Part shown: in pieces, positions 2,229 to 26,016 of the stretch
Position numbering within the stretch: the first letter of the stretch is position 1
Layout: each line of letters begins with the position of its first letter
Assembly (NCBI RefSeq): GCF_026151205.1
Contig: NC_087073.1
Coordinates: 10,202,636 to 10,266,635 of the forward strand
From: Bolinopsis microptera
Taxonomy: Eukaryota
Direction of reading: 5' to 3'
Length of the DNA stretch: 64,000 nucleotides
The notes under the pieces: generated by a model
What the model was told of the DNA's origin: nothing
Databases searched by the model: none
Seen by the model: the letters and a program-made list of their open reading frames with translations, nothing else
Translations under genes and position numbers: made by a program

Positions 2229-3784
2229 ACACTATCCTTTTGATATTGAGATATTGGTATTTCAGATCACGTGTACATCGTTCCTTTTTTTACGACACAG
2301 TAATTTATTGACACTCACAGCTATAATTTTAATCATTGAATCAGTATTTTTATCTGTGCTCTGCGAATGCATCACATGAATCAGTTTTTTAATCTATTAA
2401 CTTATTACACATTTGTGCTCTGCTTTAGCATCACTTGACTATTTAAAAAAAATTGTTTGTTCAGGCCATGACCTTATAGTCAGCCAATTGGCCATTGCTA
2501 TATTATGTGTATATTGTCTTAGTAAAGCTTATACTATAAAGCTAACAAACGAGTATTTGGAAGGAATCTTAGATAAAAAGATATTGATGTCATTTATCAC
2601 TTTATTTCTAGCAAAACTTTCTCTTGGTAAAATGTTTATGATCTTAATTTTTGCAGCTGGAGCCCACGAGTGAAGTGACTGGATCAGATTATCAATAGAG
2701 CGATTGGTGTTATCAAGGGCCTTTGCTTTTCCTGTGAACTCATCGGGTGACAATAATCTATTCCTCATGTGTCGAGGACTCTCTAGGATTAAGTGATACT
2801 ATCAATCAAATGAATACACAGGCAACGGAAATGGTCCATGGCTACCTTTTTTTCAGATCTCAATAATGTGTTCATTTGGGCCCTAAACAAAAAAGTGCTG
2901 CCTAGAATGGCCAGGATATGTAGGACGTAGGTGCGACAACTAAAACAATGTCAATTCCAACTAGTTGTGAAGCTTGTATGGACCTTTAGAAGTCGTTGGT
3001 TTACCACAGGAATTGATGGCAATACAAAATAGGCAAGGAAAATTCATGAAATGTATAATAGGGAACTTATTAATTAACTGATTAATCCATCCTAATGAGA
3101 TATAACAAACAGTATAATTAATATAATAGTTCCCGGAGCAATTGAAAAACCGTTAGCGGTGCGAAAAGATTCTAAGGATGCACATCACGTTTCTTCAGGG
3201 GACAATAATGACTTAAATTGTAAATTAGCACTAAACCTACTAGATATAGTAGTCGTGCAGTGGGTGCACAGAGGAATTTTATTTAATCTCGATTCAGTAG
3301 GACCCATCAAAGCGATTCGAAATGTTGTGTTGATATTTAGAGAGGGGTGAAAAATTTATAAAATAGCACTAAACCCACTAAATGCTAATTTTAGTAAAGT
3401 CGTGGGTGCAAAGAGGAATTTTATTTAATCTCAATTCAGACAGATTATCGGGAAATCCGCGATAGCAGATAAAGTATGACAGGGAGTAACCCATCAAAGC
3501 GATTCGAAATATTGTACCGTAAGTGTAACTTTTAATACACGTTTATTGCACAACCAACGCTGGACATGACTAATTACTCCAATCTGGAATATCTCTTCCA
3601 AAACTGGGCTATTAATGCCCAGAGATTGCTTAACTAGCCTTCAGTGACTGGTAACGGACTTAGTGGTTGCCGGTTGAGACTTAAAGTTCAACAAAAACAA
3701 CAATGGCGAACCTAGCAAGCGGCCACGGTCCTTTCGGTACAAATTTTCCTGCAGCATAGTCGGGACGCAACCCCAGGCATATGC

Positions 3785-3981
3785 ACTCTTGTTATTTTCG
3801 CAGCTCTAATGAAAGCCACTACCATTCACACCATGGTTTGGTGAGTGACAGCTGCCCATCAATTTTGAAATCTGGGCCCAACTTGGATTCGAACTCGCAA
3901 CATATCACAATGACCCCTAAATACTTACTTGAAAGCTATGCTTCACGTTGGGAAGCTTTTTACTGGGCGGAGCTCCCGCCG
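3785..3981 (+). repeat. segment X copy 1 (~197 bp) carrying a tRNA-like T-arm motif on the minus strand; E is inserted immediately to its right
   Basis: Identical to 20740-20937. The rc contains gcgaGTTCGAATCcaagttgggccca (tRNA T-loop consensus), but I could not fold a cloverleaf, so it is probably tRNA-derived (SINE-like). Confidence 0.4.
3972..3981. repeat. target-site duplication GCTCCCGCCG of E copy 1 (partner at 11268-11277)
   Basis: Identical 10-mers abut both E termini. A single occurrence is seen at the empty site 20928-20937. Confidence 0.55.
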
Positions 3982-4367
3982 GATGATAATTAATCACTCT
4001 ACAGTCGACTGTCACGTGACAAAAACGCCGTGATTTCATTGGTTAACCTGATAACGCGCCGCAGATCTCTATAAACACAAATTATTCATCGCGCGTGCAG
4101 TAAACTCAAATTAAGTCCTAATTTGTTACCGAAATTTGGCAACTATCAACATCATGGCACAATTAAGTCGCATGCCCAGTAAATTGCTAATCAAATGTAC
4201 GGCACTAATAATACAGTCTACACTTACAGTGTATGAATTCATGAACAAATTTATTAAGGCAGATTGGTAGAACAACGATCGTAAATGATAATTTGTATTA
4301 ACAGTGGAAAGTGTTCTTAAGGGAGACTGTTGTGCAGCCATGTCGGGAGTTATAAAACACCGAACAC

Positions 4368-5400
4368 GACATTAAAAACACTTTCCAACTACAAAACTTA
4401 ACCACTAAACCAGCTTTGAGCACCATTTCTAGGTTATGAGACGGCTAAATGATGCGAATAATAAATCCTCAGAGCTCCCAGTACTCTACATTAAAAACAC
4501 TTTCCAACTACAAAACTTAACCACAAAACCAGCGAGATCTGAGCACTATTTCTAGGTTATGAGACGGCTAAATGATGCGAATAATAAATCCTCAGAGCTC
4601 CCAGTACTCTACATTAAAAACACTTTCCAACTACAAAACTTAACCACTAAACCAGCTTTGAGCACTATTTCTAGGTTATGAGACGGCTAAATGATGCGAA
4701 TAATAAATCCTCAGAGCTCCCAGTACTCTACATTAAAAACACTTTCCAACTACAAAACTTAACCACAAAACCAGCTCTGAGCACTATTTCTAGGTTATGA
4801 GACGGCTAAATGATGCGAATAATAAATCCTCAGAGCTCCCAGTACTCTACATTAAAAACACTTTCCAACTACAAAACTTAACCACAAAACCAGCTCTGAG
4901 CACTATTTCTAGGTTATGAGACGGCTAAATGATGCGAATAATAAATCCTCAGATCTCCCAGTACTCTACATTAAAAACACTTTCCAACTACAAAACTTAA
5001 CCACAAAACCAGCTCTGAGCACTATTTCTAGGTTATGAGACAGCTAAATGATGCCAATTATAAATCCTCAGAGCTCCCAGTACTCTACATTAAAAACACT
5101 TTCCAACTACAAAACTTAACCACTAAACTGCAGCTCTGTGCACTATTTCTAGGTTATGAGACGGCTAAATGATGCCAATTATAAATCCTCAGAGCTCCCA
5201 GTACTCTACATTAAAAACACTTTCCAACTACAAAACTTAACCACAAAACCAGCTCTGAGCACTATTTCTAGGTTATGAGACGGCTAAATGATGCGAATAA
5301 TAAATCCTCAGAGCTCCTAGTACTCTACATTAAAAACACTTTCCAACTACAAAACTTAACCACAAAGCCAGCTTTGAGCACTATTTCTAGGTTCTAAAAC
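4368..5400. repeat. ~119-bp satellite, ~9 tandem units, inside E copy 1
   Basis: The unit acattaaaaacactttccaactacaaaacttaaccac...cagagctcccagtactct restarts at 4368, 4488, 4611, 4730, 4849, 4968, 5087, 5208 and 5327. Confidence 0.85.
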
Positions 5401-7319
5401 GACAAAACGATGCGAATTATAAATCTCCCACTGCGTAAGCCGGTAAACTAATTAACCGGCTAAAAAAGCTGAGACGGCTATTATGTATTATCGTAACGAC
5501 ATGATCACGGCCGTTAAATGGCTATTAGTTGACTGTTCATAACAGCTGCTCTATATTTGTGCGCTCTATCATAAGGTTGTTTCAGAGCTGCTAAACTCCG
5601 GCTAATATAACAAGCCTTTTTATATAGCCATTTAAGAAGGAAAAATACTTAGCACTTTACAACCAACAATCACTCATGTTTTAAACCTTTATAGCGAGTC
5701 GGCATATTACAATTTTACCGAAGTCAATTATTTTTACTTGAAAAGTATAAGAGTTAAGACTGCAGAATCTTTAGTATTATAAGTATAAAAAGCAGAAAAA
5801 CACGCCACATGAGGTCTCAAAATATAGATAACAGTAAGATTTTTAATCTGCCTGCACGTGAGATGGGGGGAATGTTTTTTATTCTTCTTCTTTGCAGGAA
5901 GTGGTAACCTGTTCTATCCCTCTAGTTCTTTTTGTTGTTACGCCACTGCTTGTTGTATTTCCTGCTATCACTGGTTGTGTGTTCCGGCCCTGTTAGTGTT
6001 CTTGGACAGCCAGGACTGTTTTTCTTTGCTCCTGATAAGATATTTATGATAAGATATTTATGAAAAATAAAATAAGGAGGAAAGGAATTATTCAACGTTT
6101 CAATGTGACAACATCGTAATCAAACGTGGGATCAACAGAAATTTGACTCTCATAAATAATATTCAATTCGGATTTCAAATATAATAAGGAGCTAAATAAA
6201 GTAGTGTTTAAACCAAATTAATTGATGAGTACACCCGTCTTATTATATGCTATAGATTGAGTTATACAATATCAATATATACATCTATGCAGAATTTGAT
6301 ATGTATGAATCATGATTCCACCTAATTTGTGAACGGAAATTATTGCGGAATCGAAACTTTTTAAATACAGTAAAACCCCGATTGACCGCGGAGTTTGGGG
6401 GAAAGGAAACATCTGCGGTAAATCGGGGTTCGTGGTAAATCGGGGTTTTGTTTGTTTACATTATACTAATTGTATCGATGTAAATACGTTTGGTCAAAGA
6501 AGAGTCAACCTAAAAGTAACAATTACATGGTAGTTCAGTACACTAATAAATATGTTGAGGATATCAACCTTAACAAGATCCTGAAATCATTCTCAGACAT
6601 GTAGACTTCCTCAAGTCTCATGGAATTAAAATCAAGTCTGAGAATAGAAAGCTTCCATATCTGTATGGTACGACAAAAATGCACAAGGACCCTATTAAAT
6701 TTCGATTCATTACATCTGGAAGAAATAGTTCCTTGCAGCAGTTGTCTGTAGCTGTTGGATTATGTTTGAAAACGTGTCTGAAAGTTGCTAAAAATTATTC
6801 TGGGATTAATCTTACTTCGGAATATGTATTTTAGCATGACGTGTCATTCTTTTTGTTAGTTCGTTTTCAATTTTTGATCTTAATTTTAATTTTCAGTACG
6901 TTTTACCTAAAAATATCATTTTTTAGCTAGCAGAATGGTTTTCAGAGGGCATTAATGAAATGTACTATGAGCTGGTCCCAAGTCCAGACGCCATTTTATT
7001 CTTTGTAATTTTAAATAACACTGTCTAGTCATTGACTACTGAATATACATGGAAACATATGTGGTCATAAGCTATCTATACTATACATTGCACATCGTTT
7101 ATTAATTGTAATTAAAGCAAGTCATTGAATGTTTTATCTGGCAACAGTGCACTGGGTAGGAATGTGAGTGTGTACTGTGTATTTTTTGTAGCTCGCTCAA
7201 TGGTGAATCTTAACGTAGGCCAATTTTATTTAGAGATATCAATTATATCATAGCCAAACTGGGGAAGGTTTTCATAGTCAACTTAAACAAGTTGTGATTA
7301 CATTACATAAGCTGACGGT

Positions 7320-8548
7320 TATTTTCGATTTTCTCAAGATCTAACTGATAGAATTTGAAATATTTCCTTGTGTTTGAAGTCATATCTCACGTTTGGCACA
7401 TAGAAATTCGCGCAAACTTGCTCAGATTATCCGTCTTATAGACATGTGACTATCTGGAAAGTTTAAAGAAATTCTATCAGTTAGATCTTGAGATAATCGA
7501 CTTTCGTCAAATATCGTACCAAAACCGCCAATTTGAGATATTTTAATGTGTTTGAAGTCATATCTCAAGTTTGGCTCATAAAAATTCGCCCAAACTTGCT
7601 CAGATTAATCGTCTTATAACCATGTAACTATCTGGAAAGTTTAAAAAATTCTATCAGTTAGATCTCAAAATATATGCCCGCGTTCCGCGAGAACGCACCA
7701 ATTAGAGATATTTTCTTGTGTTTGAAGTTATATCTCAAATTTGGCATATAGAAATTCGCTCAAACTTGCTCATATTGTCTGTCTTATAGCCATGTAACTA
7801 TTTGGAAACATTTTAAGAAATTCTATCAGTAAGATCTTGAGATAATGGACTTTCGTCAAATATCGTACCAAAACTGCCAATTTGAGATATTTTAATGTGT
7901 TTGAATTCATATCTCAAGTTTGGCACATATGAATTCGCCCAAACTTGCTCAGATTAATCGTCTTATAGCCATGTAACTATCTAGGGGGGGGGGGAGCCAA
8001 GGAGATATTTGTAGATATTTGTAGATTAATGTAGAATGAATAATCCACGAAAAAAGTGGTTGACATTCTACAAATTTATACATTTATCTCCAAAAATTCA
8101 GTAGAATTTCTGGGCACATATTTGAGATTACATTTTTGTAGATAAATGTAGATATTTGTAGATTATTGTCAATGGATAATTCACGAAAATTCTACAAATT
8201 CTACAAATTTATACATTTATCTCCAAAAATTCAGTAGAATTTCTGGGCACATATTTGAGATATACATTTTTTGTAGATAAATGTAGATATTTGTAGATTA
8301 TTGTAATGGATAATTCACGAAAAAAGTGGTGAATTAACGTATCCAAATATCTACAAAAATCTACTTGGCTCCCCCCCTATCTGGAAAGTTTAAAGAAATT
8401 CTATCAGTTAGATCTTGAGATAATCGACTTTCGTCAAATATCGTACCAAAACCGCCAATTTGAGATATTTTAATGTTTTTGAAGTCATATCTCAAGTTTG
8501 GCACATAGAAATTTGCCCAAACTTGCTCAGATTATCCGTCTTATAAAT
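7320..8548. repeat. ~178-bp satellite, ~5 units, inside E copy 1; interrupted by a nested MITE
   Basis: The unit tatctggaaagtttaaagaaattctatcagttagatcttgagataatcgactttcgtcaaatatcgtaccaaaaccgccaatttgagatatt...cttgctcagatta.tcgtcttata.ccatgtaac restarts at ~7451, 7629, 7799, 7978 and 8388. Confidence 0.8.
7983..8387. mobile_element. nested ~400-bp MITE with poly-G/poly-C termini (GGGGGGGAGCCAAG...CTTGGCTCCCCCCC), inserted in a satellite unit
   Basis: It interrupts the satellite between aactatct and ggaaag. 'tatct' is present on both sides, giving a probable 5-bp target-site duplication. The interior is two ~130-bp subrepeats (tacaaat/tagatatttgtagat-rich). Confidence 0.5.
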
Positions 8549-8756
8549 CAAGAGGCTTGCATATAATGAACATGTTGACATGGGTGCAGAGTTGAGTCTG
8601 TACGGAACCTAGTAGTTTCAGTTCCTTGTTTAACTTGCCGTACAGCAAGGACATCCACTACTTTAGCCCGGCGAGGCACATAACTCACTCTACAACTCCA
8701 TGTCAAATGTTTCATATATTCATATATAGCCATGTAACTATCTGGAAAGTTTAAAG

Positions 8757-9328
8757 TCAGGGTCAGGATCAGGATCAGGATCAGGATCAGGATCAGGGTC
8801 AGGATCAGGGTCAGGGTCAGGGTCAGGGTCAGGGTCAGGGTCAGGGTCAGGGTCAGGGTCAGGGTCAGGGTCAGGGTCAGGGTCAGGGTCAGGGTCAGGG
8901 TCAGGGTCAGGGTCAGGGTCAGGGTCAGGGTCAGGGTCAGGGTCAGGGTCAGGGTCAGGGTCAGGGTCAGGGTCAGGGTCAGGGTCAGGGTCAGGGTCAG
9001 GGTCAGGGTCAGGGTCAGGGTCAGGGTCAGGGTCAGGGTCAGGGTCAGGGTCAGGGTCAGGGTCAGGGTCAGGGTCAGGGTCAGGGTCAGGGTCAGGGTC
9101 AGGGTCAGGGTCAGGGTCAGGGTCAGGGTCAGGGTCAGGGTCAGGGTCAGGGTCAGGGTCAGGGTCAGGGTCAGGGTCAGGGTCAGGGTCAGGGTCAGGG
9201 TCAGGGTCAGGGTCAGGGTCAGGGTCAGGGTCAGGGTCAGGGTCAGGGTCAGGGTCAGGGTCAGGGTCAGGGTCAGGGTCAGGGTCAGGGTCAGGGTCAG
9301 GGTCAGGGTCAGGGTCAGGGTCAGGGTT
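8757..9328. repeat. hexanucleotide microsatellite (TCAGGG)n / (GGGTCA)n, ~95 units, preceded by a few TCAGGA units
   Basis: Pure hexamer array. It accounts for the spurious 265-aa 'TLTLTL' ORF at 8548-9345. The array begins inside a satellite unit, right after ...ctggaaagtttaaag. Confidence 0.95.
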
Positions 9329-11267
9329 AATTGTCGCCCACCCATTTTACCATGGAAAATGTAGTCATAAGCTATCTATATATAATATTATACATTGCAC
9401 ATCGTTTATTAATTGTAATTAAAGCAACTCATTGAATGTTTTATCTGGCAACAGTTATTATACATAGTGTGCACTGAGTAGGAATGTGAGTATGTATTTT
9501 TTGTACTTATTAACGGTGAATCTTAACGTGGGCTGATTTTATTTGGTGATATCAATTATTTCATAGCCAAACTGGGGAAGGTTAAATAAAACAAGTTGTA
9601 ATTAAATTAAATTAGCTGATAGTAGAAACTTTTCGCAAATAAACTGTGAATTAACAGTGAACAGTGAACACATATAATTTGAGAGAGAATTGATTCGTTC
9701 ACCGGACACATACATTATACTGTCCAGAGATATTATGGGAGGTTCAAGCTTATTAAAAGATTCTTTGAACTTTTGAAAAGTAGCAAAAATTGAGAAAAAT
9801 TGATAATCTAGGAGGGGATAGGGAGTTGGTTCAAACATATAAGTAATAAAACATGTTTTATTTTGCAGAATTATACAATATGCATATGTTATCGTCTTCG
9901 ACTATAAGGGATGATGGGGCGATGACGTGATTATAATTATATATGATAAAGTTCCAGGTGATGACTAATTGAAGGCGTGTAAGTGTGAGGATGAAGAATC
10001 AGCCTTGATGCATGAGCTGGAAGGGTGAACGAGGTAAAAATATGTACATGGTACAATTTCATAGAAACTGAGAACAAAAATCCTTTACATCAGTACAGAC
10101 CGATATGCTTGCCTTCAATTACAAACCTTGCTTTAAAAATGATATTGTTATTCAAGTTAAAAGCCTTCGAAGTTTTTTAATAAACTATCGCATGATATTG
10201 TATATCAATCAAATTGCAACTCTTAAGTTAACTTGTTGTTTAATTGTATTACTGAGTCATAAATGAACACTTGTAGTACGTACCTATATGGCGGTTGATC
10301 TGCAACTTGTCCCATGCTGATGAACCTGATAATTAAAATATTTGTTGTAAATATCCATAATATTCACACTAGATTCTAGACGGCAAAGTTCGAATTGCAG
10401 TCGGAACTGCAGAGTGGAGACGTACATTTTGTTAATTTACTAAAGTAACTGGTAAAAACACTTCTATGGAAATAAAACCAGGTTATATAATAAATTTATA
10501 GTCTATTAAACTACATCGATAATAGTATATTATATGGATAACAATAATAATAATATCAGTTTCGGCTGCTCAGGTCAAAATTCGAAAACCTATCATTTTA
10601 TGCAGCCTAGATTTAATGATTCAAATAAGAAGCGCAGTGTTTCTAAAGTAAGACCGTAGACTTCTACAATAGCTGGATCAGCTATGGCTTAAGGAAAAAC
10701 AATATATGCTCTTCGCATAAAAAAAACACAATTAAAACGAATGCAAAATTTGTGATTCTATTTCTAGGATGACATATCAAAAATATTTTTAAATAGGACT
10801 CAAGCAATCAGGCGTAATCTAAACTATAGTTTATTGATACTTCAACTTGGCTTTGCTTTATATTAAAATCTCAGCATTTTGATCCAGCGAAAAATTCTAT
10901 TTGTACCTCGACTCATATGTCATACGAAACAGTACACTAGAAAATACGGCTCAACAATTTTAACTTCTGAAGGCGGCTCTGTATCATTCTACATTCTGAC
11001 AACAGTCCTTCTATGCTATGTCAACAATTTAAAAACCTATTCATTCAACTTATAGGATTTCAAGGTATTACACAAGTGGCAATGATGAATCATGGATGAT
11101 AATTGATTATTGACGAAAACTCGACAAGCAAGTTTGAAACCCAAAGTAAGAAATCGGGATCAAATATGATTGACACGTAACGCGCGCGTATAACATGTGC
11201 TTATCCAATGCGAAACTAAAAGTGGTGAAAATGGAAGAATCGACTGTAGAGTGATTTAGCGCGACCG

Positions 11268-11277
11268 GCTCCCGCCG
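11268..11277. repeat. target-site duplication GCTCCCGCCG of E copy 1 (partner at 3972-3981)
   Basis: See partner. Confidence 0.55.
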
Positions 11278-12249
11278 AATAACATTCTCAATTCAATAGC
11301 AATCAAATGTTTACAATTAAACCAAACTGTGCACAATTGTAATGCGTGTGATATAGTTAAGAGACAAATACACGGTAAAGTAGGGTCAAGTAAAAATTAT
11401 GACATCACATCATCATACATGTCTAAAAAATATCATCGCATAAAATATAAAATAAATATTTCCCCACCAACATTAACTATTTACCAAATAAAATATTCTA
11501 AAAAAATTTATCAAAACATTATCCTATAAAGATCTTATCAAACTTCGCAGTGGAATACAAATTTATAAATTGCTTCCTTGCCACATGAGGACGAAACCAA
11601 ACACAATTGTTATGTTTCTCTTTATTACTTAAATTTAACAATAAGATTTTTTGAAACAGTGTACACATAATGTCACAATGACCCTATATAAAAATAACCC
11701 TTCAAAAAATCAATATTTTGAAAATCACCCTCGACCCTGTTATGGGCTCCAAGTTCAAATCTAAACTGTATATATTGACAAAGTTCTTACTCGCCCCTCT
11801 GTCTCCCTCTTTCTTACTGACAGAACTGGCTGGGTAAATATTAAAAAATACGTGGTAGAGAAACAAAACAAAAACCAATTTTTTTATTAATCATTCTGTA
11901 ATCAAAAATTAATATTGTAAACAATAATGTAAGACAGAGAGATTTTAAAAAGATTATATATTTAAAAAAGATCCTGTCCTCATTTGAAGGTTCGATGGTT
12001 GTAGCGCAATGCACTACTGGGCCACGCCGCACATCAAATAATTGTTCTCGCAACCGGTATAGATCGGCGAAATGCACATCGGTGAATTGGGCCTCGCCTT
12101 GTATCACGTCGTGACCCACATTGTCGTTTTACTAATACAGGGGAGCCGCGCACGAGGGTCATACAATGTGTGACAAATTTCGACAAGAAAGTGGCGCACT
12201 ACTTTGAAAAAATTTAAACGAGTATCACCCGTCTTTACATACAACATAG

Positions 12250-12375
12250 CCATGTGTTTACGCGTACTGCGTGACGTTGCTCTAACCATGAACCAGAGCC
12301 TCTCGCTTCATGTGAAACAAGCGCGTCACGCAGTACGCGTAGACACATGACTATGTGAATGCGTGACACACTTGT
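12250..12375. repeat. compound hairpin: ~32-bp inverted repeat (catagccatgtgtttacgcgtactgcgtgacg / cgtcacgcagtacgcgtagacacatgactatg) with an overlapping second inverted repeat (catgtgaaacaagcgcgtcacgc / gcgtgacacacttgtttcacaag)
   Basis: Read directly as reverse complements. Also present in the copy at ~24005-24130. Confidence 0.6.
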
Positions 12376-12397
12376 TTCACAAGTAGAATATCTTTGC

Positions 12398-13257
12398 CGC
12401 CTTCGGCGGTCGCGCGCTACTGCAGGCGAGAGGGATCTGGTTACAGCAATCACCCGTCAAAATTAATGATATGGCACAATATTTACAGTTTCAAAGGTTT
12501 TTTTGTAGTTTACTATATTCTACTTGCTAGTCCATCTATATTATAATTTAAAGTATTATGTTTGTTTGCACTTGCCATAATATTTCGAGAAGAAATCGGT
12601 GCGCGCTTCTTCGAAGAAATTTAGACGAGTAATATCTTGGAGGACTTCGCCGCTTCGATGCGCCGCGCAAGCTAGCATTCTTGCTTCGCGTCGCAGAGCT
12701 ACGATCTGGAAGGGTTGACATCGTCAATCAATGATCAAGTAACATCTGTCAATAACGAGGGTTATTTTACACACATGCACGTGCAATCATTGTTGGAACG
12801 ACGCGACATTTTCAACATAAGGAAGCAGCTTCGTTTTGAAATCCTAATAAGAACAACAGTGATTTCTTTACGGGGAGACAGAGGTGCGATAAAAAACTTT
12901 ATAACAAGTTCGGCCTAAAATTTGACCATTGTTAATGATCTGGCCCGGCGCGCGCTACTTCGTAGCACGTGCCATCGTTTCGAGAAAATTACTTTGAAGA
13001 AATTTAGACGAGTAACGTCCGTCAATCTAAAATATGTAAAAATTTTAGGTTTGATACCGTTAGTAGTGTCAACTGTCATCAGTAATACGAATCACAAAAT
13101 GGAATAAGGTTCAAGGGGATTAGCTCAACATAAGCTTCCGTAACAGTGTTTCCCAACCCATCCTAACAGCTATATAAAATTGGTTATACATTTGAGGAAG
13201 CAACACAATATTAAATAATACTGCATATGTTGCTCTAACCAGAGCCCTCTCGCTTGC
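12398..13257. mobile_element. TIR-bounded ~0.9 kb segment of Y (TIR ~45 bp, GCCTTCGGCGGTCGCGCGCTACTGCAGGCGAGAGGGATCTGGTTA); its 3' TIR is truncated by the duplication breakpoint
   Basis: The full copy at ~24155-25040 ends with aaccagagccctctcgcttgcagtagcgcgcgaccgccgaaggc, which is the reverse complement of its start. In unit 1 the end stops at gcagtagc|A. Confidence 0.35.
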
Positions 13258-13428
13258 AGTAGCTATTAATGCCCAGAGATTGCTTAACTAGCCTTCAGTG
13301 ACTGGTAACGGACTTAGTGGTTGCCGGTTGAGACTTAAAGTTCAACAAAAACAACAATGGCGAACCTAGCAAGCGGCCACGGTCCTTTCGGTACAAATTT
13401 TCCTGCAGCATAGTCGGGACGCAACCCC

Positions 13429-13438
13429 AGGCATATGC
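13429..13438. repeat. target-site duplication AGGCATATGC of E copy 2 (partner at 20730-20739)
   Basis: Identical 10-mers abut both E termini. A single occurrence is seen at the empty site 3775-3784. Confidence 0.55.
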
Positions 13439-15377
13439 GGTCGCGCTAAATCACTCTACAGTCGATTCTTCCATTTTCACCACTTTTAGTTTCGCATTGG
13501 ATAAGCACATGTTATACGCGCGCGTTACGTGTCAATCATATTTGATCCCGATTTCTTACTTTGGGTTTCAAACTTGCTTGTCGAGTTTTCGTCAATAATC
13601 AATTATCATCCATGATTCATCATTGCCACTTGTGTAATACCTTGAAATCCTATAAGTTGAATGAATAGGTTTTTAAATTGTTGACATAGCATAGAAGGAC
13701 TGTTGTCAGAATGTAGAATGATACAGAGCCGCCTTCAGAAGTTAAAATTGTTGAGCCGTATTTTCTAGTGTACTGTTTCGTATGACATATGAGTCGAGGT
13801 ACAAATAGAATTTTTCGCTGGATCAAAATGCTGAGATTTTAATATAAAGCAAAGCCAAGTTGAAGTATCAATAAACTATAGTTTAGATTACGCCTGATTG
13901 CTTGAGTCCTATTTAAAAATATTTTTGATATGTCATCCTAGAAATAGAATCACAAATTTTGCATTCGTTTTAATTGTGTTTTTTTTATGCGAAGAGCATA
14001 TATTGTTTTTCCTTAAGCCATAGCTGATCCAGCTATTGTAGAAGTCTACGGTCTTACTTTAGAAACACTGCGCTTCTTATTTGAATCATTAAATCTAGGC
14101 TGCATAAAATGATAGGTTTTCGAATTTTGACCTGAGCAGCCGAAACTGATATTATTATTATTGTTATCCATATAATATACTATTATCGATGTAGTTTAAT
14201 AGACTATAAATTTATTATATAACCTGGTTTTATTTCCATAGAAGTGTTTTTACCAGTTACTTTAGTAAATTAACAAAATGTACGTCTCCACTCTGCAGTT
14301 CCGACTGCAATTCGAACTTTGCCGTCTAGAATCTAGTGTGAATATTATGGATATTTACAACAAATATTTTAATTATCAGGTTCATCAGCATGGGACAAGT
14401 TGCAGATCAACCGCCATATAGGTACGTACTACAAGTGTTCATTTATGACTCAGTAATACAATTAAACAACAAGTTAACTTAAGAGTTGCAATTTGATTGA
14501 TATACAATATCATGCGATAGTTTATTAAAAAACTTCGAAGGCTTTTAACTTGAATAACAATATCATTTTTAAAGCAAGGTTTGTAATTGAAGGCAAGCAT
14601 ATCGGTCTGTACTGATGTAAAGGATTTTTGTTCTCAGTTTCTATGAAATTGTACCATGTACATATTTTTACCTCGTTCACCCTTCCAGCTCATGCATCAA
14701 GGCTGATTCTTCATCCTCACACTTACACGCCTTCAATTAGTCATCACCTGGAACTTTATCATATATAATTATAATCACGTCATCGCCCCATCATCCCTTA
14801 TAGTCGAAGACGATAACATATGCATATTGTATAATTCTGCAAAATAAAACATGTTTTATTACTTATATGTTTGAACCAACTCCCTATCCCCTCCTAGATT
14901 ATCAATTTTTCTCAATTTTTGCTACTTTTCAAAAGTTCAAAGAATCTTTTAATAAGCTTGAACCTCCCATAATATCTCTGGACAGTATAATGTATGTGTC
15001 CGGTGAACGAATCAATTCTCTCTCAAATTATATGTGTTCACTGTTCACTGTTAATTCACAGTTTATTTGCGAAAAGTTTCTACTATCAGCTAATTTAATT
15101 TAATTACAACTTGTTTTATTTAACCTTCCCCAGTTTGGCTATGAAATAATTGATATCACCAAATAAAATCAGCCCACGTTAAGATTCACCGTTAATAAGT
15201 ACAAAAAATACATACTCACATTCCTACTCAGTGCACACTATGTATAATAACTGTTGCCAGATAAAACATTCAATGAGTTGCTTTAATTACAATTAATAAA
15301 CGATGTGCAATGTATAATATTATATATAGATAGCTTATGACTACATTTTCCATGGTAAAATGGGTGGGCGACAATTA

Positions 15378-15957
15378 ACCCTGACCCTGACCCTGACCCT
15401 GACCCTGACCCTGACCCTGACCCTGACCCTGACCCTGACCCTGACCCTGACCCTGACCCTGACCCTGACCCTGACCCTGACCCTGACCCTGACCCTGACC
15501 CTGACCCTGACCCTGACCCTGACCCTGACCCTGACCCTGACCCTGACCCTGACCCTGACCCTGACCCTGACCCTGACCCTGACCCTGACCCTGACCCTGA
15601 CCCTGACCCTGACCCTGACCCTGACCCTGACCCTGACCCTGACCCTGACCCTGACCCTGACCCTGACCCTGACCCTGACCCTGACCCTGACCCTGACCCT
15701 GACCCTGACCCTGACCCTGACCCTGACCCTGACCCTGACCCTGACCCTGACCCTGACCCTGACCCTGACCCTGACCCTGACCCTGACCCTGACCCTGACC
15801 CTGACCCTGACCCTGACCCTGACCCTGACCCTGACCCTGACCCTGACCCTGACCCTGACCCTGACCCTGACCCTGACCCTGACCCTGACCCTGACCCTGA
15901 CCCTGATCCTGACCCTGATCCTGATCCTGATCCTGATCCTGATCCTGACCCTGACTT
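15378..15957. repeat. mirror hexamer array (CCCTGA)n, ~96 units
   Basis: Reverse complement of the left array. It is one unit longer (267- vs 265-aa spurious ORF). Confidence 0.95.
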
Positions 15958-16161
15958 TAAACTTTCCAGATAGTTACATGGCTATATATGAATATATGAA
16001 ACATTTGACATGGAGTTGTAGAGTGAGTTATGTGCCTCGCCGGGCTAAAGTAGTGGATGTCCTTGCTGTACGGCAAGTTAAACAAGGAACTGAAACTACT
16101 AGGTTCCGTACAGACTCAACTCTGCACCCATGTCAACATGTTCATTATATGCAAGCCTCTT

Positions 16162-17390
16162 GATTTATAAGACGGATAATCTGAGCAAGTTTGGGCAAAT
16201 TTCTATGTGCCAAACTTGAGATATGACTTCAAAAACATTAAAATATCTCAAATTGGCGGTTTTGGTACGATATTTGACGAAAGTCGATTATCTCAAGATC
16301 TAACTGATAGAATTTCTTTAAACTTTCCAGATAGGGGGGGAGCCAAGTAGATTTTTGTAGATATTTGGATACGTTAATTCACCACTTTTTTCGTGAATTA
16401 TCCATTACAATAATCTACAAATATCTACATTTATCTACAAAAAATGTATATCTCAAATATGTGCCCAGAAATTCTACTGAATTTTTGGAGATAAATGTAT
16501 AAATTTGTAGAATTTGTAGAATTTTCGTGAATTATCCATTGACAATAATCTACAAATATCTACATTTATCTACAAAAATGTAATCTCAAATATGTGCCCA
16601 GAAATTCTACTGAATTTTTGGAGATAAATGTATAAATTTGTAGAATGTCAACCACTTTTTTCGTGGATTATTCATTCTACATTAATCTACAAATATCTAC
16701 AAATATCTCCTTGGCTCCCCCCCCCCCAGATAGTTACATGGCTATAAGACGATTAATCTGAGCAAGTTTGGGCGAATTCATATGTGCCAAACTTGAGATA
16801 TGAATTCAAACACATTAAAATATCTCAAATTGGCAGTTTTGGTACGATATTTGACGAAAGTCCATTATCTCAAGATCTTACTGATAGAATTTCTTAAAAT
16901 GTTTCCAAATAGTTACATGGCTATAAGACAGACAATATGAGCAAGTTTGAGCGAATTTCTATATGCCAAATTTGAGATATAACTTCAAACACAAGAAAAT
17001 ATCTCTAATTGGTGCGTTCTCGCGGAACGCGGGCATATATTTTGAGATCTAACTGATAGAATTTTTTAAACTTTCCAGATAGTTACATGGTTATAAGACG
17101 ATTAATCTGAGCAAGTTTGGGCGAATTTTTATGAGCCAAACTTGAGATATGACTTCAAACACATTAAAATATCTCAAATTGGCGGTTTTGGTACGATATT
17201 TGACGAAAGTCGATTATCTCAAGATCTAACTGATAGAATTTCTTTAAACTTTCCAGATAGTCACATGTCTATAAGACGGATAATCTGAGCAAGTTTGCGC
17301 GAATTTCTATGTGCCAAACGTGAGATATGACTTCAAACACAAGGAAATATTTCAAATTCTATCAGTTAGATCTTGAGAAAATCGAAAATA
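16162..17390. repeat. mirror copy of the ~178-bp satellite inside E copy 2
   Basis: Reverse complement of 7320-8548. Confidence 0.8.
16334..16738. mobile_element. mirror copy of the nested poly-G/C-terminated MITE
   Basis: Reverse complement of 7983-8387. The G-run and C-run lengths are swapped accordingly (7 vs 11). Confidence 0.5.
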
Positions 17391-19309
17391 ACCGTCAGCT
17401 TATGTAATGTAATCACAACTTGTTTAAGTTGACTATGAAAACCTTCCCCAGTTTGGCTATGATATAATTGATATCTCTAAATAAAATTGGCCTACGTTAA
17501 GATTCACCATTGAGCGAGCTACAAAAAATACACAGTACACACTCACATTCCTACCCAGTGCACTGTTGCCAGATAAAACATTCAATGACTTGCTTTAATT
17601 ACAATTAATAAACGATGTGCAATGTATAGTATAGATAGCTTATGACCACATATGTTTCCATGTATATTCAGTAGTCAATGACTAGACAGTGTTATTTAAA
17701 ATTACAAAGAATAAAATGGCGTCTGGACTTGGGACCAGCTCATAGTACATTTCATTAATGCCCTCTGAAAACCATTCTGCTAGCTAAAAAATGATATTTT
17801 TAGGTAAAACGTACTGAAAATTAAAATTAAGATCAAAAATTGAAAACGAACTAACAAAAAGAATGACACGTCATGCTAAAATACATATTCCGAAGTAAGA
17901 TTAATCCCAGAATAATTTTTAGCAACTTTCAGACACGTTTTCAAACATAATCCAACAGCTACAGACAACTGCTGCAAGGAACTATTTCTTCCAGATGTAA
18001 TGAATCGAAATTTAATAGGGTCCTTGTGCATTTTTGTCGTACCATACAGATATGGAAGCTTTCTATTCTCAGACTTGATTTTAATTCCATGAGACTTGAG
18101 GAAGTCTACATGTCTGAGAATGATTTCAGGATCTTGTTAAGGTTGATATCCTCAACATATTTATTAGTGTACTGAACTACCATGTAATTGTTACTTTTAG
18201 GTTGACTCTTCTTTGACCAAACGTATTTACATCGATACAATTAGTATAATGTAAACAAACAAAACCCCGATTTACCACGAACCCCGATTTACCGCAGATG
18301 TTTCCTTTCCCCCAAACTCCGCGGTCAATCGGGGTTTTACTGTATTTAAAAAGTTTCGATTCCGCAATAATTTCCGTTCACAAATTAGGTGGAATCATGA
18401 TTCATACATATCAAATTCTGCATAGATGTATATATTGATATTGTATAACTCAATCTATAGCATATAATAAGACGGGTGTACTCATCAATTAATTTGGTTT
18501 AAACACTACTTTATTTAGCTCCTTATTATATTTGAAATCCGAATTGAATATTATTTATGAGAGTCAAATTTCTGTTGATCCCACGTTTGATTACGATGTT
18601 GTCACATTGAAACGTTGAATAATTCCTTTCCTCCTTATTTTATTTTTCATAAATATCTTATCATAAATATCTTATCAGGAGCAAAGAAAAACAGTCCTGG
18701 CTGTCCAAGAACACTAACAGGGCCGGAACACACAACCAGTGATAGCAGGAAATACAACAAGCAGTGGCGTAACAACAAAAAGAACTAGAGGGATAGAACA
18801 GGTTACCACTTCCTGCAAAGAAGAAGAATAAAAAACATTCCCCCCATCTCACGTGCAGGCAGATTAAAAATCTTACTGTTATCTATATTTTGAGACCTCA
18901 TGTGGCGTGTTTTTCTGCTTTTTATACTTATAATACTAAAGATTCTGCAGTCTTAACTCTTATACTTTTCAAGTAAAAATAATTGACTTCGGTAAAATTG
19001 TAATATGCCGACTCGCTATAAAGGTTTAAAACATGAGTGATTGTTGGTTGTAAAGTGCTAAGTATTTTTCCTTCTTAAATGGCTATATAAAAAGGCTTGT
19101 TATATTAGCCGGAGTTTAGCAGCTCTGAAACAACCTTATGATAGAGCGCACAAATATAGAGCAGCTGTTATGAACAGTCAACTAATAGCCATTTAACGGC
19201 CGTGATCATGTCGTTACGATAATACATAATAGCCGTCTCAGCTTTTTTAGCCGGTTAATTAGTTTACCGGCTTACGCAGTGGGAGATTTATAATTCGCAT
19301 CGTTTTGTC

Positions 19310-20342
19310 GTTTTAGAACCTAGAAATAGTGCTCAAAGCTGGCTTTGTGGTTAAGTTTTGTAGTTGGAAAGTGTTTTTAATGTAGAGTACTAGGAGCTCT
19401 GAGGATTTATTATTCGCATCATTTAGCCGTCTCATAACCTAGAAATAGTGCTCAGAGCTGGTTTTGTGGTTAAGTTTTGTAGTTGGAAAGTGTTTTTAAT
19501 GTAGAGTACTGGGAGCTCTGAGGATTTATAATTGGCATCATTTAGCCGTCTCATAACCTAGAAATAGTGCACAGAGCTGCAGTTTAGTGGTTAAGTTTTG
19601 TAGTTGGAAAGTGTTTTTAATGTAGAGTACTGGGAGCTCTGAGGATTTATAATTGGCATCATTTAGCTGTCTCATAACCTAGAAATAGTGCTCAGAGCTG
19701 GTTTTGTGGTTAAGTTTTGTAGTTGGAAAGTGTTTTTAATGTAGAGTACTGGGAGATCTGAGGATTTATTATTCGCATCATTTAGCCGTCTCATAACCTA
19801 GAAATAGTGCTCAGAGCTGGTTTTGTGGTTAAGTTTTGTAGTTGGAAAGTGTTTTTAATGTAGAGTACTGGGAGCTCTGAGGATTTATTATTCGCATCAT
19901 TTAGCCGTCTCATAACCTAGAAATAGTGCTCAGAGCTGGTTTTGTGGTTAAGTTTTGTAGTTGGAAAGTGTTTTTAATGTAGAGTACTGGGAGCTCTGAG
20001 GATTTATTATTCGCATCATTTAGCCGTCTCATAACCTAGAAATAGTGCTCAAAGCTGGTTTAGTGGTTAAGTTTTGTAGTTGGAAAGTGTTTTTAATGTA
20101 GAGTACTGGGAGCTCTGAGGATTTATTATTCGCATCATTTAGCCGTCTCATAACCTAGAAATAGTGCTCAGATCTCGCTGGTTTTGTGGTTAAGTTTTGT
20201 AGTTGGAAAGTGTTTTTAATGTAGAGTACTGGGAGCTCTGAGGATTTATTATTCGCATCATTTAGCCGTCTCATAACCTAGAAATGGTGCTCAAAGCTGG
20301 TTTAGTGGTTAAGTTTTGTAGTTGGAAAGTGTTTTTAATGTC
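19310..20342. repeat. mirror copy of the ~119-bp satellite inside E copy 2
   Basis: Reverse complement of 4368-5400. Confidence 0.85.
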
Positions 20343-20729
20343 GTGTTCGGTGTTTTATAACTCCCGACATGGCTGCACAACAGTCTCCCTTAAGAACACT
20401 TTCCACTGTTAATACAAATTATCATTTACGATCGTTGTTCTACCAATCTGCCTTAATAAATTTGTTCATGAATTCATACACTGTAAGTGTAGACTGTATT
20501 ATTAGTGCCGTACATTTGATTAGCAATTTACTGGGCATGCGACTTAATTGTGCCATGATGTTGATAGTTGCCAAATTTCGGTAACAAATTAGGACTTAAT
20601 TTGAGTTTACTGCACGCGCGATGAATAATTTGTGTTTATAGAGATCTGCGGCGCGTTATCAGGTTAACCAATGAAATCACGGCGTTTTTGTCACGTGACA
20701 GTCGACTGTAGAGTGATTAATTATCATCC

Positions 20730-20739
20730 AGGCATATGC
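20730..20739. repeat. target-site duplication AGGCATATGC of E copy 2 (partner at 13429-13438)
   Basis: See partner. Confidence 0.55.
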
Positions 20740-20937
20740 ACTCTTGTTATTTTCGCAGCTCTAATGAAAGCCACTACCATTCACACCATGGTTTGGTGAG
20801 TGACAGCTGCCCATCAATTTTGAAATCTGGGCCCAACTGGGATTCGAACTCGCAACATATCACAATGACCCCTAAATACTTACTTGAAAGCTATGCTTCA
20901 CGTTGGGAAGCTTTTTACTGGGCGGAGCTCCCGCCGA
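20740..20937 (+). repeat. segment X copy 2; E is inserted immediately to its left
   Basis: Direct repeat of 3785-3981. It is followed by gctcccgccg|aataacattc with no interruption, which is the empty site for the copy-1 insertion. Confidence 0.4.
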
Positions 20938-21716
20938 ATAACATTCTCAATTCAATAGCAATCAAATGTTTACAATTAAACCAAACTGTGCACAATTGTA
21001 ATGCGTGTGATATAGTTAAGAGACAAATACACGGTAAAGTAGGGTCAAGTAAAAATTATGACATCACATCATCATACATGTCTAAAAAATATCATCGCAT
21101 AAAATATAAAATAAATATTTCCCCACCAACATTAACTATTTACCAAATAAAATATTCTAAAAAAATTTATCAAAACATTATCCTATTTTAAAGATCTTAT
21201 CAAACTTCGCAGTGGAATACAAATTTATAAATTGCTTCTTTGCCACATGAGGACGAAACCAAACACAATCGTTATGTTTCTCTTTATTACTTAGATTGGA
21301 CAATAAGATTTTTTGAAACAGTGTATATATAAAAATAACCCTTCAAAAAATCAATATTTTGAAAATCACCCTCGACCCTGTTATGGGCTCCAAGTTCAAA
21401 TCTAAACTGTATATATTGACAGAGTTCTTACTTCTTACTCGCCCCTCTGTCTCCCTCTTTCTTACTGACATAACTGGCTGGGTAAATATTAAAAAATACG
21501 TGGTAGAGAAACAAAAAAAACCAATTTTTTTATTAATCATTCTGTAATCAAAAATTAATATTGTAAACAATAATAATGTAAGACAGAAAGATTTTAAAAA
21601 GATTATATATTTAAAAAAGATCCTGTCCTCATTTGAAGGTTCGATGGTTGTAGCGCAATGCACTACTGGGCCACGCCGCACATCAAATAATTGTTCTCGC
21701 AACCGGTATAATAGAT

Positions 21717-22216
21717 TTTACCAAAACCCATAATCATGGGTAGAGTGGACCGCTGTCAGTGTCTCTCTTTCCCAAACAAAAGGAAATGATATTACTTTGA
21801 ATGACCGTTATCAAATGCAAAATGATACCGAGAATGAAATCGGTCGCTCGCTTTTCCCATTCATTCACGGCTTACGAATTGTAATAAGTTTCGATTGATT
21901 ACATCAATCAGATGCTGTAAAAATCTCTTTGGGTTGCGTTCGGGTCGATACCTAGTATTTCGGGGTAAGGGTGGTAGTTATTAGTATTACTTATTGAATT
22001 AGCTGAAGTTTATTGAATCTTCATTGCCGAGTACAGCTGCCTTTGGGTAGTTCTTCTTAATCTATTACAATTGTAAATGAATGGGAAAAGCGAGCGACCG
22101 ATTTCATTCTCGGTATCATTTTGCATTTGAGAACGGTCAATCAAAGTAATATCATTTCCTTTTGTTTGGGAAAGAGAGACACTGACAGCGGTCCACTCTA
22201 CCCATGATTATGGGTT
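21717..22216. mobile_element. ~500-bp MITE with ~150-bp terminal inverted repeats, inserted into the Y copy of unit 2
   Basis: 21717-21868 (ttttaccaaaacccataatcatgggtagagtggaccgctgtcagtgtctc...) is the reverse complement of 22066-22216. It is absent from the corresponding site of unit 1 (12055, caaccggtatagatcggcg). Confidence 0.6.
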
Positions 22217-25200
22217 TTGGTAAAATATCATCTCTTTTTGATTATAATGTCAGGGTACTTTATAAAGTCGAAATATAAACTGATATCTTCATTAATAAGG
22301 AGGAAGTTTCAACGATTTCGAAATCTATCCTTTAAAAACATTTCCTTGTGTTTAGGGAAGCATATCGGTCGATCACAGACTGAATATGCCACTTAATACT
22401 CATTCAAGTTGGCATTAAATTCATATATAATGACATTAAACTGTCGTGGCAAAGCAGAATTTGTTGGAAATCACGAATGAGCAAAATTCTCACCTTTCGC
22501 ACGTGCAAACTTTGAGCAGACGTTGCGTGCGCATCCAATATTGAATAGCCGTAAATTTTTGCATGTAATTGTTTTATATATAGCTTGATAAGCATGCAAA
22601 GTTTCAAAGTATTTTAAGAAGAACTGTAATCACAACGGCACTCTAAAGTTGACAGAAAATGACGAAAACAGCAATTTTCAGTGATTTTAGCGATTTTCTA
22701 TCAATTTGGGCGTGTCCCAACGTGTGCAACTTTTCGATTTTCAACTTTAAAACTAGCCTATGACACAATTTATACCTATAGGAAGCAGAACTGAGCTCCA
22801 CAACCCAAGGCATGGCCCAACACCAGAGAATACTAAATCGCAAAATTGACGTTTTTATAAAATAATTCTTCAAAAAAGCACAAACTTCAATGACGAATAT
22901 TTTTATGAAGGAGCAAGCTAGAAAAACTTTCTGGTAGATTTTCAGAATGCTTGAACAATTATCTAAGATGAAAATTTCCTCAGATTTTGAATAAAATTAC
23001 TCCTTAATGGTTTAAAATTAATTTTAAAAGTTATTACTTTGTCAAAAATCAAATTTTAAAAACGGTTAACTTGATGACGTCATCAAGGGGTGTTTATGAC
23101 GTCATATAATTTTTTTATACAATGTAAACTAAAGTATAAACAATTATTTGCAAGACCTGTGGTCGGAAATGGCTGTATCTTTTACACTTTTGAATCTATG
23201 GACAATTAAATACAGGCTACAATTGACTGGCAAAGCGTCTATCCCTGAATATATATATATATGTATATATGTATCACGACAATCTATCGTAAAACAGGGG
23301 TTCTAGAAAACCCACTTCCCGATGCTCCTGAAACCTGAAACTTTTTTTGCAGTCGATTTGGTCAACGTCTAGACGCCCTGAAAAATTTCAGAGCTTTAAC
23401 TCAATTTTAACATGGTTTTTAAGGCACCTGAATATGGCGATTTTGGGTTTTTTACCGAATTTCGTATAACACCCTCGACCCTGTTATGGGCTCCAAGTTC
23501 AAATCTAAACTGTATATATTGACAGAGTTCTTACTTCTTACTCGCCCCTCTGTCTCCCTCTTTCTTACTGACATAACTGGCTGGGTAAATATTAAAAAAT
23601 ACGTGGTAGAGAAACAAAAAAAAACCAATTTTTTTATTAATCATTCTGTAATCAAAAATTAATATTGTAAACAATAATAATGTAAGACAGAAAGATTTTA
23701 AAAAGATTATATATTTAAAAAAGATCCTGTCCTCATTTGAAGGTTCGATGGTTGTAGCGCAATGCACTACTGGGCCACGCCGCACATCAAATAATTGTTC
23801 TCGCAACCGGTATAATAGATCGGCGAAATGCACATCGGGGAATTGGGCCTCGCCTTGTATCACGTCGTGACCCACATTGTCGTTTTACTAATACAGGGGA
23901 GCCGCGCACGAGGGTCATACAATGTGTGACAAATTTCGACAAGAAAGTGGCGCACTACTTTGAAAAAATTTAAACGAGTATCACCCGTCTTTACATACAA
24001 CATAGCCATGTGTTTACGCGTACTGCGTGACGTTGCTCTAACCATGAACCAGAGCCTCTCGCTTCATGTGAAACAAGCGCGTCACGCAGTACGCGTAGAC
24101 ACATGACTATGTGAATGCGTGACGCACTTGTTTCACAAGTAGAATATCTTTGCCGCCTTCGGCGGTCGCGCGCTACTGCAGGCGAGAGGGATCTGGTTAC
24201 AGCAATCACCCGTCAAAATTAATGATATGGCACAATATTTACAGTTTCAAAGGTTTTTTGTAGTTTACTATATTCTACTTGCTAGTCCATCTATATTATA
24301 ATTTAAAGTATTATGTTTGTTTGCACTTGCCATAATATTTCGAGAAGAAATCGGTGCGCGCTTCTTCGAAGAAATTTAGACGAGTAATATCTTGGAGGTC
24401 TTCGCCGCTTCGATGCGCCGCGCAAGCTAGCATTCTTGCTTCGCGTCGCAGAGCTACGATCTGGAAGGGTTGACATCGTCAATCAATGATCAAGTAACAT
24501 CTGTCAATAACGAGGGTTATTTTACACACATGCACGTGCAATCATTGTTGGAACGACGCGACATTTTCAACATAAGGAAGCAGCTTCGTTTTGAAATCCT
24601 AATAAGAACAACAGTGATTTCTTTACGGGGAGACATAGGTGCGATAAAAAACTTTATAACAAGTTCGGCCTAAAATTTGACCATTGTTAATGATCTGGCC
24701 CGGCGCGCGCTACTTCGTAGCACGTGCCATCGTTTCGAGAAGAAATTACTTTGAAGAAATTTAGACGAGTAACGTCCGTCAATCTAAAATATGTAAATAT
24801 TTTAGGTTTGATACCGTTAGTAATGTCAACTGTCATACGAATCACAAAATGGAATAAGGTTCAAGGGGATTAGCTCAACATAAGCTTCCGTAACAGTGTT
24901 TCCCAACCCATCCTAACAGCTATATAAAATTGGTTATACATTTGAGAAAGCAACACAATATTAAATAATACTGCATATGTTGCTCTAACCAGAGCCCTCT
25001 CGCTTGCAGTAGCGCGCGACCGCCGAAGGCATTACGCGTATACACATGGCTATGTGAACTGAATATGCATTGTCAAAAATATAAAATTAAAGGGGTGGTG
25101 GGGTGATCACAAAATGTGATGGTCCTGTAACCTGTTAAAGCTTAACGAATCTCAACATAAGTTGTAAGTGACATAGGAAGGTGACAAAGGGGTGTTAATG

Positions 25201-25865: not shown

Positions 25866-25992
25866 TACCTTACTCGGGAATATTATGACTGGGATAAAGT
25901 GGTGGGTTTTGGAAAATTCCGCCATATTTTTCCGGGTCATTAATTTTTCCAGTCATAAATTAACCCGCTATAATGTTCCCTAGTAAGGTAAA
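25866..25992 (+). mobile_element. ~125-bp MITE, TIR TACCTTACTCGGGAATATTAT (family with further copies at 26017-26110, 58853-58965 and 59617-59731)
   Basis: It starts taccttactcgggaatattat and ends ataatgttccctagtaaggta. The flanks tta|...|taa suggest a TWA-like 3-bp target-site duplication. Confidence 0.5.
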
Positions 25993-26016
25993 CTAATAGT
26001 AATACATTTTGATGCT

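Follow-up and report, generated by a model that had tools for sequence, protein, structure and literature searches.

A 16.7-kb palindrome near a TEP1-like gene of the ctenophore Bolinopsis microptera, probably a by-product of two opposite insertions of one non-autonomous transposon

What sort of history leaves two 7.3-kb stretches of DNA facing one another in inverted orientation, nearly letter for letter the same, with 2.17 kb of other sequence standing between them? The question is raised by a locus of the ctenophore Bolinopsis microptera (assembly GCF_026151205.1, contig NC_087073.1, positions 10,202,636 to 10,266,635 of the forward strand), a stretch of 64,000 nucleotides which here is called the window and within which all coordinates are given. 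The palindrome lies upstream of a gene resembling that for telomerase-associated protein 1, i.e., a TEP1-like gene. Our answer, which we hold with considerable confidence, is that the palindrome is a by-product of two recent, oppositely oriented insertions of one non-autonomous transposon, here termed E, as following the tandem duplication of a host segment, here termed X.

The palindrome and its boundaries

An inverted repeat had been reported by a first-pass annotation of the window, and a repeat finder along with self-BLAST recover it at essentially the same coordinates. The whole inverted structure is 16,749 bp, with arms of 7,287 and 7,292 bp around a spacer of 2,170 bp, and the inverted-repeat match is far above chance expectation. 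Upon global alignment the arms display 0 substitutions and 2 indels only, namely a single base in a G10/G11 run (near 7983/16728) and a single GTCAGG unit in a hexamer array of 95 versus 96 copies (near 8847/15863). Both are slippage indels. The same annotation had listed pairs of identical open reading frames (ORFs), one per arm, which is a trivial consequence of the near identity of the arms. The pairs in fact are identical other than 8548-9345 / 15360-16163 (265 vs 267 aa), which are unequal because this pair crosses the hexamer array that differs by one unit.

The arms, the short duplications which bound them, and the host segment into which they are set are as follows.

3608..3980, + strand: 5' part of X unit 1, left of E copy 1; holds the AGGCATATG empty site
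3972..3980, no strand: left target-site duplication of E copy 1 (GCTCCCGCC)
3981..11267, + strand: E copy 1, the left arm, a putative non-autonomous transposon of 7,287 bp; ends confirmed by metagenome contigs L006 (5') and L005/L009/L010 (3')
11268..11276, no strand: right target-site duplication of E copy 1 (GCTCCCGCC)
11268..13437, + strand: spacer; 11268-13261 is what remains of X unit 1, and 13262-13437 are the opening 176 bp of X unit 2
13429..13437, no strand: inner target-site duplication of E copy 2 (AGGCATATG)
13438..20729, - strand: E copy 2, the right arm, 7,292 bp, in inverted orientation
20730..20738, no strand: outer target-site duplication of E copy 2 (AGGCATATG)
20739..25013, + strand: remainder of X unit 2; holds the GCTCCCGCC empty site and an unrelated 1.75-kb insert (21717-23469)

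X is a 2.36-kb host segment that has been tandemly duplicated, with unit 1 consisting of 3608-3980 plus 11268-13261 and unit 2 consisting of 13262-13437 plus 20730-25013. The two units meet at 13261|13262, a junction with 2-bp GC microhomology, and they diverge by ~0.7% in substitutions, plus small indels. The spacer is ordinary host DNA lying outside of the transposon. The flanks of the palindrome are not mirrored, as had been correctly pointed out previously, and instead are paralogues in direct orientation, with 100% identity between 3608-3784 and 13262-13438 and 99.5% identity between 3773-3981 and 20728-20936.

Both of the 9-bp target-site duplications are perfect, and the two 9-mers, GCTCCCGCC and AGGCATATG, are unrelated to each other. 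Each, moreover, has an empty counterpart within the window. A single, uninterrupted GCTCCCGCC is found at 20927-20935 in X unit 2, and a single, uninterrupted AGGCATATG is found at 3775-3783 in X unit 1. Because the E copies occupy non-equivalent positions, each unit of X supplies the empty site of the insertion that is carried by the other. For both insertions the filled and empty sites are identical over 15 nt on each side. Filled-site and empty-site pairs such as these are the textbook signature of two separate transposition events. The earlier suggestion that the arms are oppositely oriented copies of E thus is not only supported but strengthened, as both arms prove to be full elements, each provided with a 9-bp duplication and a matching empty site, and as their ends are common to independent members of a family.

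Those ends can be described as follows.

3981..4008, + strand: E 5' terminus, GGATGATAATT plus the 17-bp core AATCACTCTACAGTCGA
11240..11267, + strand: E 3' terminus, the inverted core plus TAGCGCGACCG

The two termini in full are GGATGATAATTAATCACTCTACAGTCGA and TCGACTGTAGAGTGATTTAGCGCGACCG. Each consists of 11 end-specific nt and then the perfect 17-bp core in inverted arrangement, making for an imperfect 28-bp terminal inverted repeat (TIR), where the outer 11 nt match at 3/11 while the core, at positions 12-28 from each end, matches perfectly. The core occurs 4 times in the window, once at each E end and nowhere else, versus 0.18 expected by chance, and a motif scan of the window found no subterminal repetition of this motif in E.

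Public metagenome contigs were scanned for this 17-bp subterminal core, and four marine-metagenome contigs display real similarity to E. Three of them (L005, L009, and L010) have in common the 3' terminus ...GAGTGATTTAGCGCGACCG, with similarity ending exactly at the equivalent of 11267 and with unrelated flanks beyond. The fourth (L006) carries the 5' terminus, GGATG..ATTAATCACTCTACAGTCGACTGTCACGTGAC, beginning at the base equivalent to 3981. Each type of end, that is, is conserved across E copies. L010 follows E collinearly, going inward from 11267 as far as ~7219, at ~84% identity in aligned blocks, and is without both the minisatellite block and the hexamer array of E. As three independent 5' flanks are each followed by GG, E starts at 3981 and the duplication is one of 9 bp rather than of 10 bp.

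Other matches to the terminal motif do not extend the family. Two from bacterial metagenome-assembled genomes, in the prokaryotic genome collection, are regarded as due to chance, with no similarity beyond the motif, as is metagenome match L007, which lies inside of a bacterial coding region. L008 shares just 23-26 nt with the terminal motif and is not counted as a family member. The viral collection yielded no terminal-motif match.

Order of events and competing explanations

The history that we propose would begin with tandem duplication of the 2.36-kb intergenic X upstream of the TEP1-like gene. The 7.29-kb E then would have inserted twice, in opposite orientations, once into X unit 1 and once into X unit 2, at non-equivalent sites 2.16 kb apart, and with each insertion making its own 9-bp duplication. 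A DDE transposase acting in trans would have been responsible, making a 9-bp staggered cut and presumably binding the 17-bp core that stands 11 nt from each end. The two insertions may be connected by a short-range hop, one E copy serving as donor for the other, in which case the donor could have been kept via replication timing or sister-chromatid repair. Such a hop is the most economical version, because the copies are near-identical, are very close, and no target hotspot is in evidence. Two hits from a third, identical master copy would be a possible alternative.

Relative timing is provided by the same locus in a related species, represented by a genomic contig (L001) from the European Nucleotide Archive (ENA). 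This contig runs collinear to the window between ~2.8 kb and 33 kb, and the interval between the same flanks is just ~2.3 kb there, made up of a single, diverged X unit, with E missing. It follows that the duplication of X, and the two insertions of E, are particular to the lineage considered here. Within that lineage, divergence between the E copies is at most 0.041% (95% upper bound), with ~52 differences expected were the pair as old as the X duplication. The E insertions thus are at least ~17-fold younger than the X duplication, or else the arms have been homogenised by gene conversion. Filled and empty sites in one locus supply, in other words, a clean internal clock, with insertions that are younger than a 0.7%-diverged duplication.

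The second of those two options can be extended into an explanation of its own, of a palindrome that is older and in which gene conversion from one arm to the other maintains identity, in the manner of the ampliconic palindromes of sex chromosomes. Long inverted repeats are well known to undergo intrachromosomal conversion, and 0 substitutions in 7.3 kb versus ~0.7% between the flanking X paralogues is what it could yield. We nonetheless find this account unlikely. The insertions are later than an X duplication which itself is young (~0.7%), and the related-species locus, with one X only and no E, displays no palindrome that might have been conserved. The arms also stop sharply at transposon termini, with duplications intact. 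Conversion, furthermore, is not needed for these data and, while possible, it would be an addition to an origin by transposition rather than an alternative to one.

More unlikely still is that the palindrome is an artefact of assembly. This could take the form of a fold-back chimeric read, or instead of insertions on two haplotypes that became joined by a phase switch within the identical 2.17-kb spacer. Mirrored flanks with little or no unique spacer are what a fold-back would give, however, and here there are 2,170 bp of host spacer and direct flanks. The arm ends, too, precisely match the termini of a transposon family that is seen elsewhere, and each arm has a different 9-bp duplication along with a matching empty site. 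It is true that complete arm identity, with differences only in a homopolymer and a microsatellite, might also be seen with sequencing error, and that no independent assembly across the junctions was found; when four small ORFs in or beside the arms (9602-9838, 4126-4341, 20736-21191, 3781-3993) were looked up by exact sequence, no record in other assemblies or transcriptomes was returned, nor was any record returned for the TEP1-like ORF. An argument against a simple fold-back artefact, already put forward in the first-pass annotation, nevertheless holds given the target-site duplications, the empty sites, and the shared family ends. A simple fold-back artefact thus is excluded and both insertions are biologically real, whereas a phase switch between haplotypes would be a possible, if unlikely, source of their apparent placement in cis on one chromosome.

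A further explanation is suggested by what is found within E.

6470..7042, + strand: Naiad-type Penelope-like remnant nested in E, with its mirror at 17665-18240 (tblastn with P0121-P0123; blastn with L003)

In a protein search using concatenated stop-free segments of E and X, only three proteins were matched (P0121-P0123, 820-899 aa), and in two of these three, P0122 and P0123, Pfam recognises a GIY-YIG domain ahead of the reverse transcriptase (RT). An N-terminal GIY-YIG plus RT is the architecture of Naiad-type Penelope-like elements, which occur in ctenophores (PMC8557442). The remnant (~570 bp) consists of ORF residues 177-215 fused to residues 422-496, plus 3' or pseudo-long-terminal-repeat (pLTR)-like sequence, and has 88-95% protein identity to P0121, which is from marine-metagenome scaffold L003. 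The palindrome then might be a Penelope-like tandem or inverted insertion, where an inverted, 5'-truncated copy comes to lie beside a full one, as these elements do create inverted repeats (PMC8557442). The Penelope-derived part, however, is internally deleted and is found mid-E rather than terminally; the arms are both full-length and equal, neither being 5'-truncated, with 2.17 kb of host DNA between them; each comes with inverted-repeat termini and a separate 9-bp duplication; and there is no hammerhead or other Rfam match. Interior remnant, equal arms, TIRs, and duplications together effectively refute this explanation, leaving it very improbable, and the remnant itself is a dead, internally deleted passenger rather than the engine of E.

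Hardly conceivable, lastly, is a non-transposon inverted segmental duplication via replication template switching or fold-back repair, events which do yield inverted duplications with a unique spacer but which would not make two different 9-bp direct duplications with empty sites, nor place their boundaries exactly where a repeat family dispersed among unrelated contigs has its termini, such that the filled-site and empty-site pairs refute it.

Several points nonetheless weigh against two recent insertions of a cut-and-paste element. The two insertions may lie on different haplotypes that were joined in the assembled sequence, and gene conversion between the arms, rather than youth, could account in part for their being identical. 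With two full copies only, a 10-bp duplication with an E start at 3982 can be considered, though this is disfavoured because L006 also carries the GG. The terminal 11 nt are unlike at the two ends, with the reverse-complemented 3' end being CGG rather than GG, and the inverted repeat is short (28 bp, imperfect) in comparison with those of typical animal Mutator-like elements. No transposase, furthermore, was found in E, in the window, or in related contigs, and superfamily and cut-and-paste mechanism consequently are read from duplication length and ends.

Two observations concern the edges of X. That E itself made the X duplication via alternative transposition was considered and is unsupported, with the 13261|13262 junction being 176 bp from the nearest E end and displaying plain 2-bp microhomology. 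Directly after the end of X unit 2, at 25012-25022, is GCGCGCGACCG, which resembles the E 3' terminus TAGCGCGACCG plus an extra CG. This 11-nt resemblance is likely due to chance, though a transposon footprint left where the duplication ends is also conceivable.

Contents and surroundings of the element

About 35% of E is tandem repeat, as minisatellites or microsatellite.

4369..5425, no strand: 119-bp minisatellite in E, 8.8 copies
7352..8323, no strand: 178-bp (x3.6) and 133-bp (x2.4) minisatellites in E
8756..9327, no strand: (GTCAGG)95 microsatellite in E; in the right copy, 96 units at 15378-15955

The (GTCAGG)n array, of 95-96 units, has a purity of 99%, and its absence from L010 makes it an expansion specific to the lineage. 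No intact ORF was found in E when its stop-free segments were inventoried, with stops instead occurring every 10-15 codons in all frames. Outside of the microsatellite there is no stop-free stretch of >99 aa, and the long open stretches that do exist are translations of the hexamer array. Scans of 1-27000 against Rfam (E-value up to 0.1) and for tRNAs returned nothing, hammerhead ribozyme included. A protein search using segments that overlap the termini of E and of its metagenomic relatives likewise returned no matches and no autonomous copy; the autonomous partner may simply be missing from the searchable data.

The palindrome, which is intergenic, ends on the right ~5.7 kb upstream of where the transcript of the TEP1-like gene (26415-37284) starts. 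The gene has a 5.1-kb, uninterrupted first coding exon (26675-31810) that is followed, as seen with a same-species transcript (L002), by ~11 short spliced exons. Its Pfam domains are TROVE, DUF5920, DUF4062, NACHT, and WD40. The first exon has 81% identity to a Mnemiopsis leidyi protein, 99% identity to a spliced same-species transcript as assembled from SRR26381704, and 97% protein and 94% nucleotide identity to L001. The host is a lobate ctenophore that stands near to M. leidyi without being that species. An intron of the gene contains complex minisatellites (11-, 33-, 37-, and 140-bp units; 36000-36677), and a (TACAAACTC)29 array is found further downstream (49123-49380).

The insert within X unit 2 (21717-23469; 1,753 bp) stands between a 351-bp direct duplication of X (21367-21716 = 23470-23820, 99.7%). 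It opens with a 154-bp inverted repeat (21715-21868 / 22073-22226), and at its far end 23265-23445 has 76% similarity to sequence lying immediately 3' of a Naiad Penelope-like ORF on a related ctenophore contig (L004, 12911-13089). The insert could have come from a Penelope-type element, in which case its target duplication would be unusually long.

Elsewhere in the window are two RT-related ORFs, 1143-2228 (361 aa) and 41027-43555 (842 aa), with a common C-terminal region bearing an HN(N/E)IRD motif and with RVT_1 the sole Pfam domain recognised. There are in addition dispersed repeats of ~70-106 bp, 82-93% identical and some inverted (25865-26108 versus 58854-59733), that are found upstream of the TEP1-like gene and near DENN-domain exons. 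These may represent a small family akin to MITEs (miniature transposable elements with inverted repeats).

Possible consequences and likeness to known systems

The palindrome invites the expectation of cruciforms. Extrusion of cruciforms from duplex DNA drops steeply, however, once a spacer exceeds ~100 bp, and in yeast the lengthening of a spacer from 12 to 100 bp cuts inverted-repeat recombination ~300-fold (PMC10164571). Repeats that are spaced by kilobases interact mainly when the region is single-stranded, leading to fold-backs and dicentric chromosomes (PMC10164571). As the spacer here is 2.17 kb, cruciform extrusion would be unlikely. More realistic routes to rearrangement would be the annealing of single-stranded arms, arm-to-arm recombination, and alternative transposition, and among these, recombination between arms and alternative transposition have the better documentation as risks where transposons are paired in inverse orientation (PMC3239180, PMC4270019). 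Instability of the locus thus is possible, though it would be much weaker than that of a true palindrome. Inversion of the spacer by arm recombination, along with alternative transposition using ends of both copies, is what likely would be seen, and the arms would give rise to double-stranded RNA (dsRNA) if read through. The pair also may move as a 16.7-kb composite transposon that carries host DNA, or may drive alternative-transposition rearrangements beside the TEP1-like gene.

From a different perspective, the inverted pair could be viewed as a silencer of its own family, with read-through producing a ~7-kb perfect hairpin that Dicer would process into small interfering RNAs of endogenous origin (endo-siRNAs). 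The idea is biologically reasonable in principle, and the arms, at 7.29 kb and with 0 substitutions, would be able to fold as a hairpin RNA. In the ctenophore Mnemiopsis, endo-siRNAs are the most abundant class associated with RNA interference (RNAi), and multi-mapping clusters fall on transposons and show secondary structure (PMC6211395). E is without any recognisable promoter or ORF, and the locus is intergenic. We view the silencer role as rather unlikely.

What then does the locus offer? A striking 16.7-kb palindrome is explained in terms of two ordinary insertions, with exact boundaries, duplications, and empty sites. These point as well to a family of non-autonomous DNA transposons that apparently has been active very recently in ctenophores and that seemingly is undescribed, ctenophore mobile elements being, to our knowledge, poorly catalogued. 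With the termini of E defined, both the family and its autonomous partner become searchable. Ctenophores are among the earliest-branching animal lineages and, so far as we know, this host lacks microRNAs. Given small-RNA data from the species, the locus would be a ready-made test of whether long transposon hairpins feed an endo-siRNA pathway in an animal without microRNAs.

As to what kind of transposon E is, its sequence displays a duplication of fixed length, empty sites, and dispersed copies with the same ends and different flanks, all as seen with TIR transposons. Because of the fixed 9-bp duplication together with short inverted termini, E is read as a DDE cut-and-paste element that is moved in trans. 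The evidence points to a non-autonomous element that is Merlin- or Mutator-like, and we do not file it in either superfamily. Merlin elements make duplications of 8-9 bp and carry a terminal 5'-GG; among them are families having highly imperfect TIRs and tandem repeats inside, and they are reported from ctenophore genomes (PMC8101967). E has the 9-bp duplication, the 5' GG, an imperfect TIR, internal tandem repeats, and a ctenophore host. It differs in its CGG 3' end, in having no DDE_Tnp_IS1595 transposase linked to it, and in being, at 7.3 kb, far larger than is typical of Merlin.

Animal Mutator-like elements (MULEs), too, have 8-9-bp duplications (PMC5225508), and the 9 bp of E lies within the 8-10 bp, typically 9, of Mutator and MULEs more generally (PMC5225508). 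Such elements, Muta1 included (PMC5225508, PMC5499845), also display no target preference, and have many heterogeneous non-autonomous derivatives and families of near-identical young copies. Animal Mutator-like elements, however, usually have TIRs of >100 bp plus short subterminal repeats, whereas E has an imperfect 28-bp TIR and no repeated subterminal motif; E thus lacks the long TIR of MULEs, and no MULE transposase was found for it.

Taken as a whole, rather than arm by arm, the structure resembles Foldback-type elements, which have long inverted arms that are rich in internal tandem repeats around a unique middle. Here, by contrast, both arms are elements complete in themselves, each bearing a duplication of its own, and the middle is made up of host DNA that has a paralogue next door. 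A closer likeness in terms of arrangement is to the Ac/Ds pairs of maize and rice, where two copies of a TIR element are found a few kb apart, in opposite orientation, each as a normal insertion (PMC3239180, PMC4270019). Such pairs are substrates for alternative transposition, inversions, and deletions (PMC3239180, PMC4270019). Ac/Ds elements are hAT transposons, however, with 8-bp duplications and known transposases, while the duplications considered here are 9 bp, the host is a ctenophore, and no rearrangement derivative is observed.

For the silencer reading, the comparison is with maize Mu killer, an inverted transposon duplication which is read through from a neighbouring gene and which silences its own family (PMC3440606), and also with inverted duplications of Ac (bioRxiv 10.1101/2020.01.07.897926). 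In those cases transcription, siRNAs, and silencing have been demonstrated, and transposase sequence is included, whereas E is non-coding, such that at most the ends and non-coding body that are shared with a partner would be targeted. What the systems have in common is an inverted transposon duplication that could give a silencing hairpin if read through and, should that reading be true, this locus would be a ctenophore counterpart of maize Mu killer.

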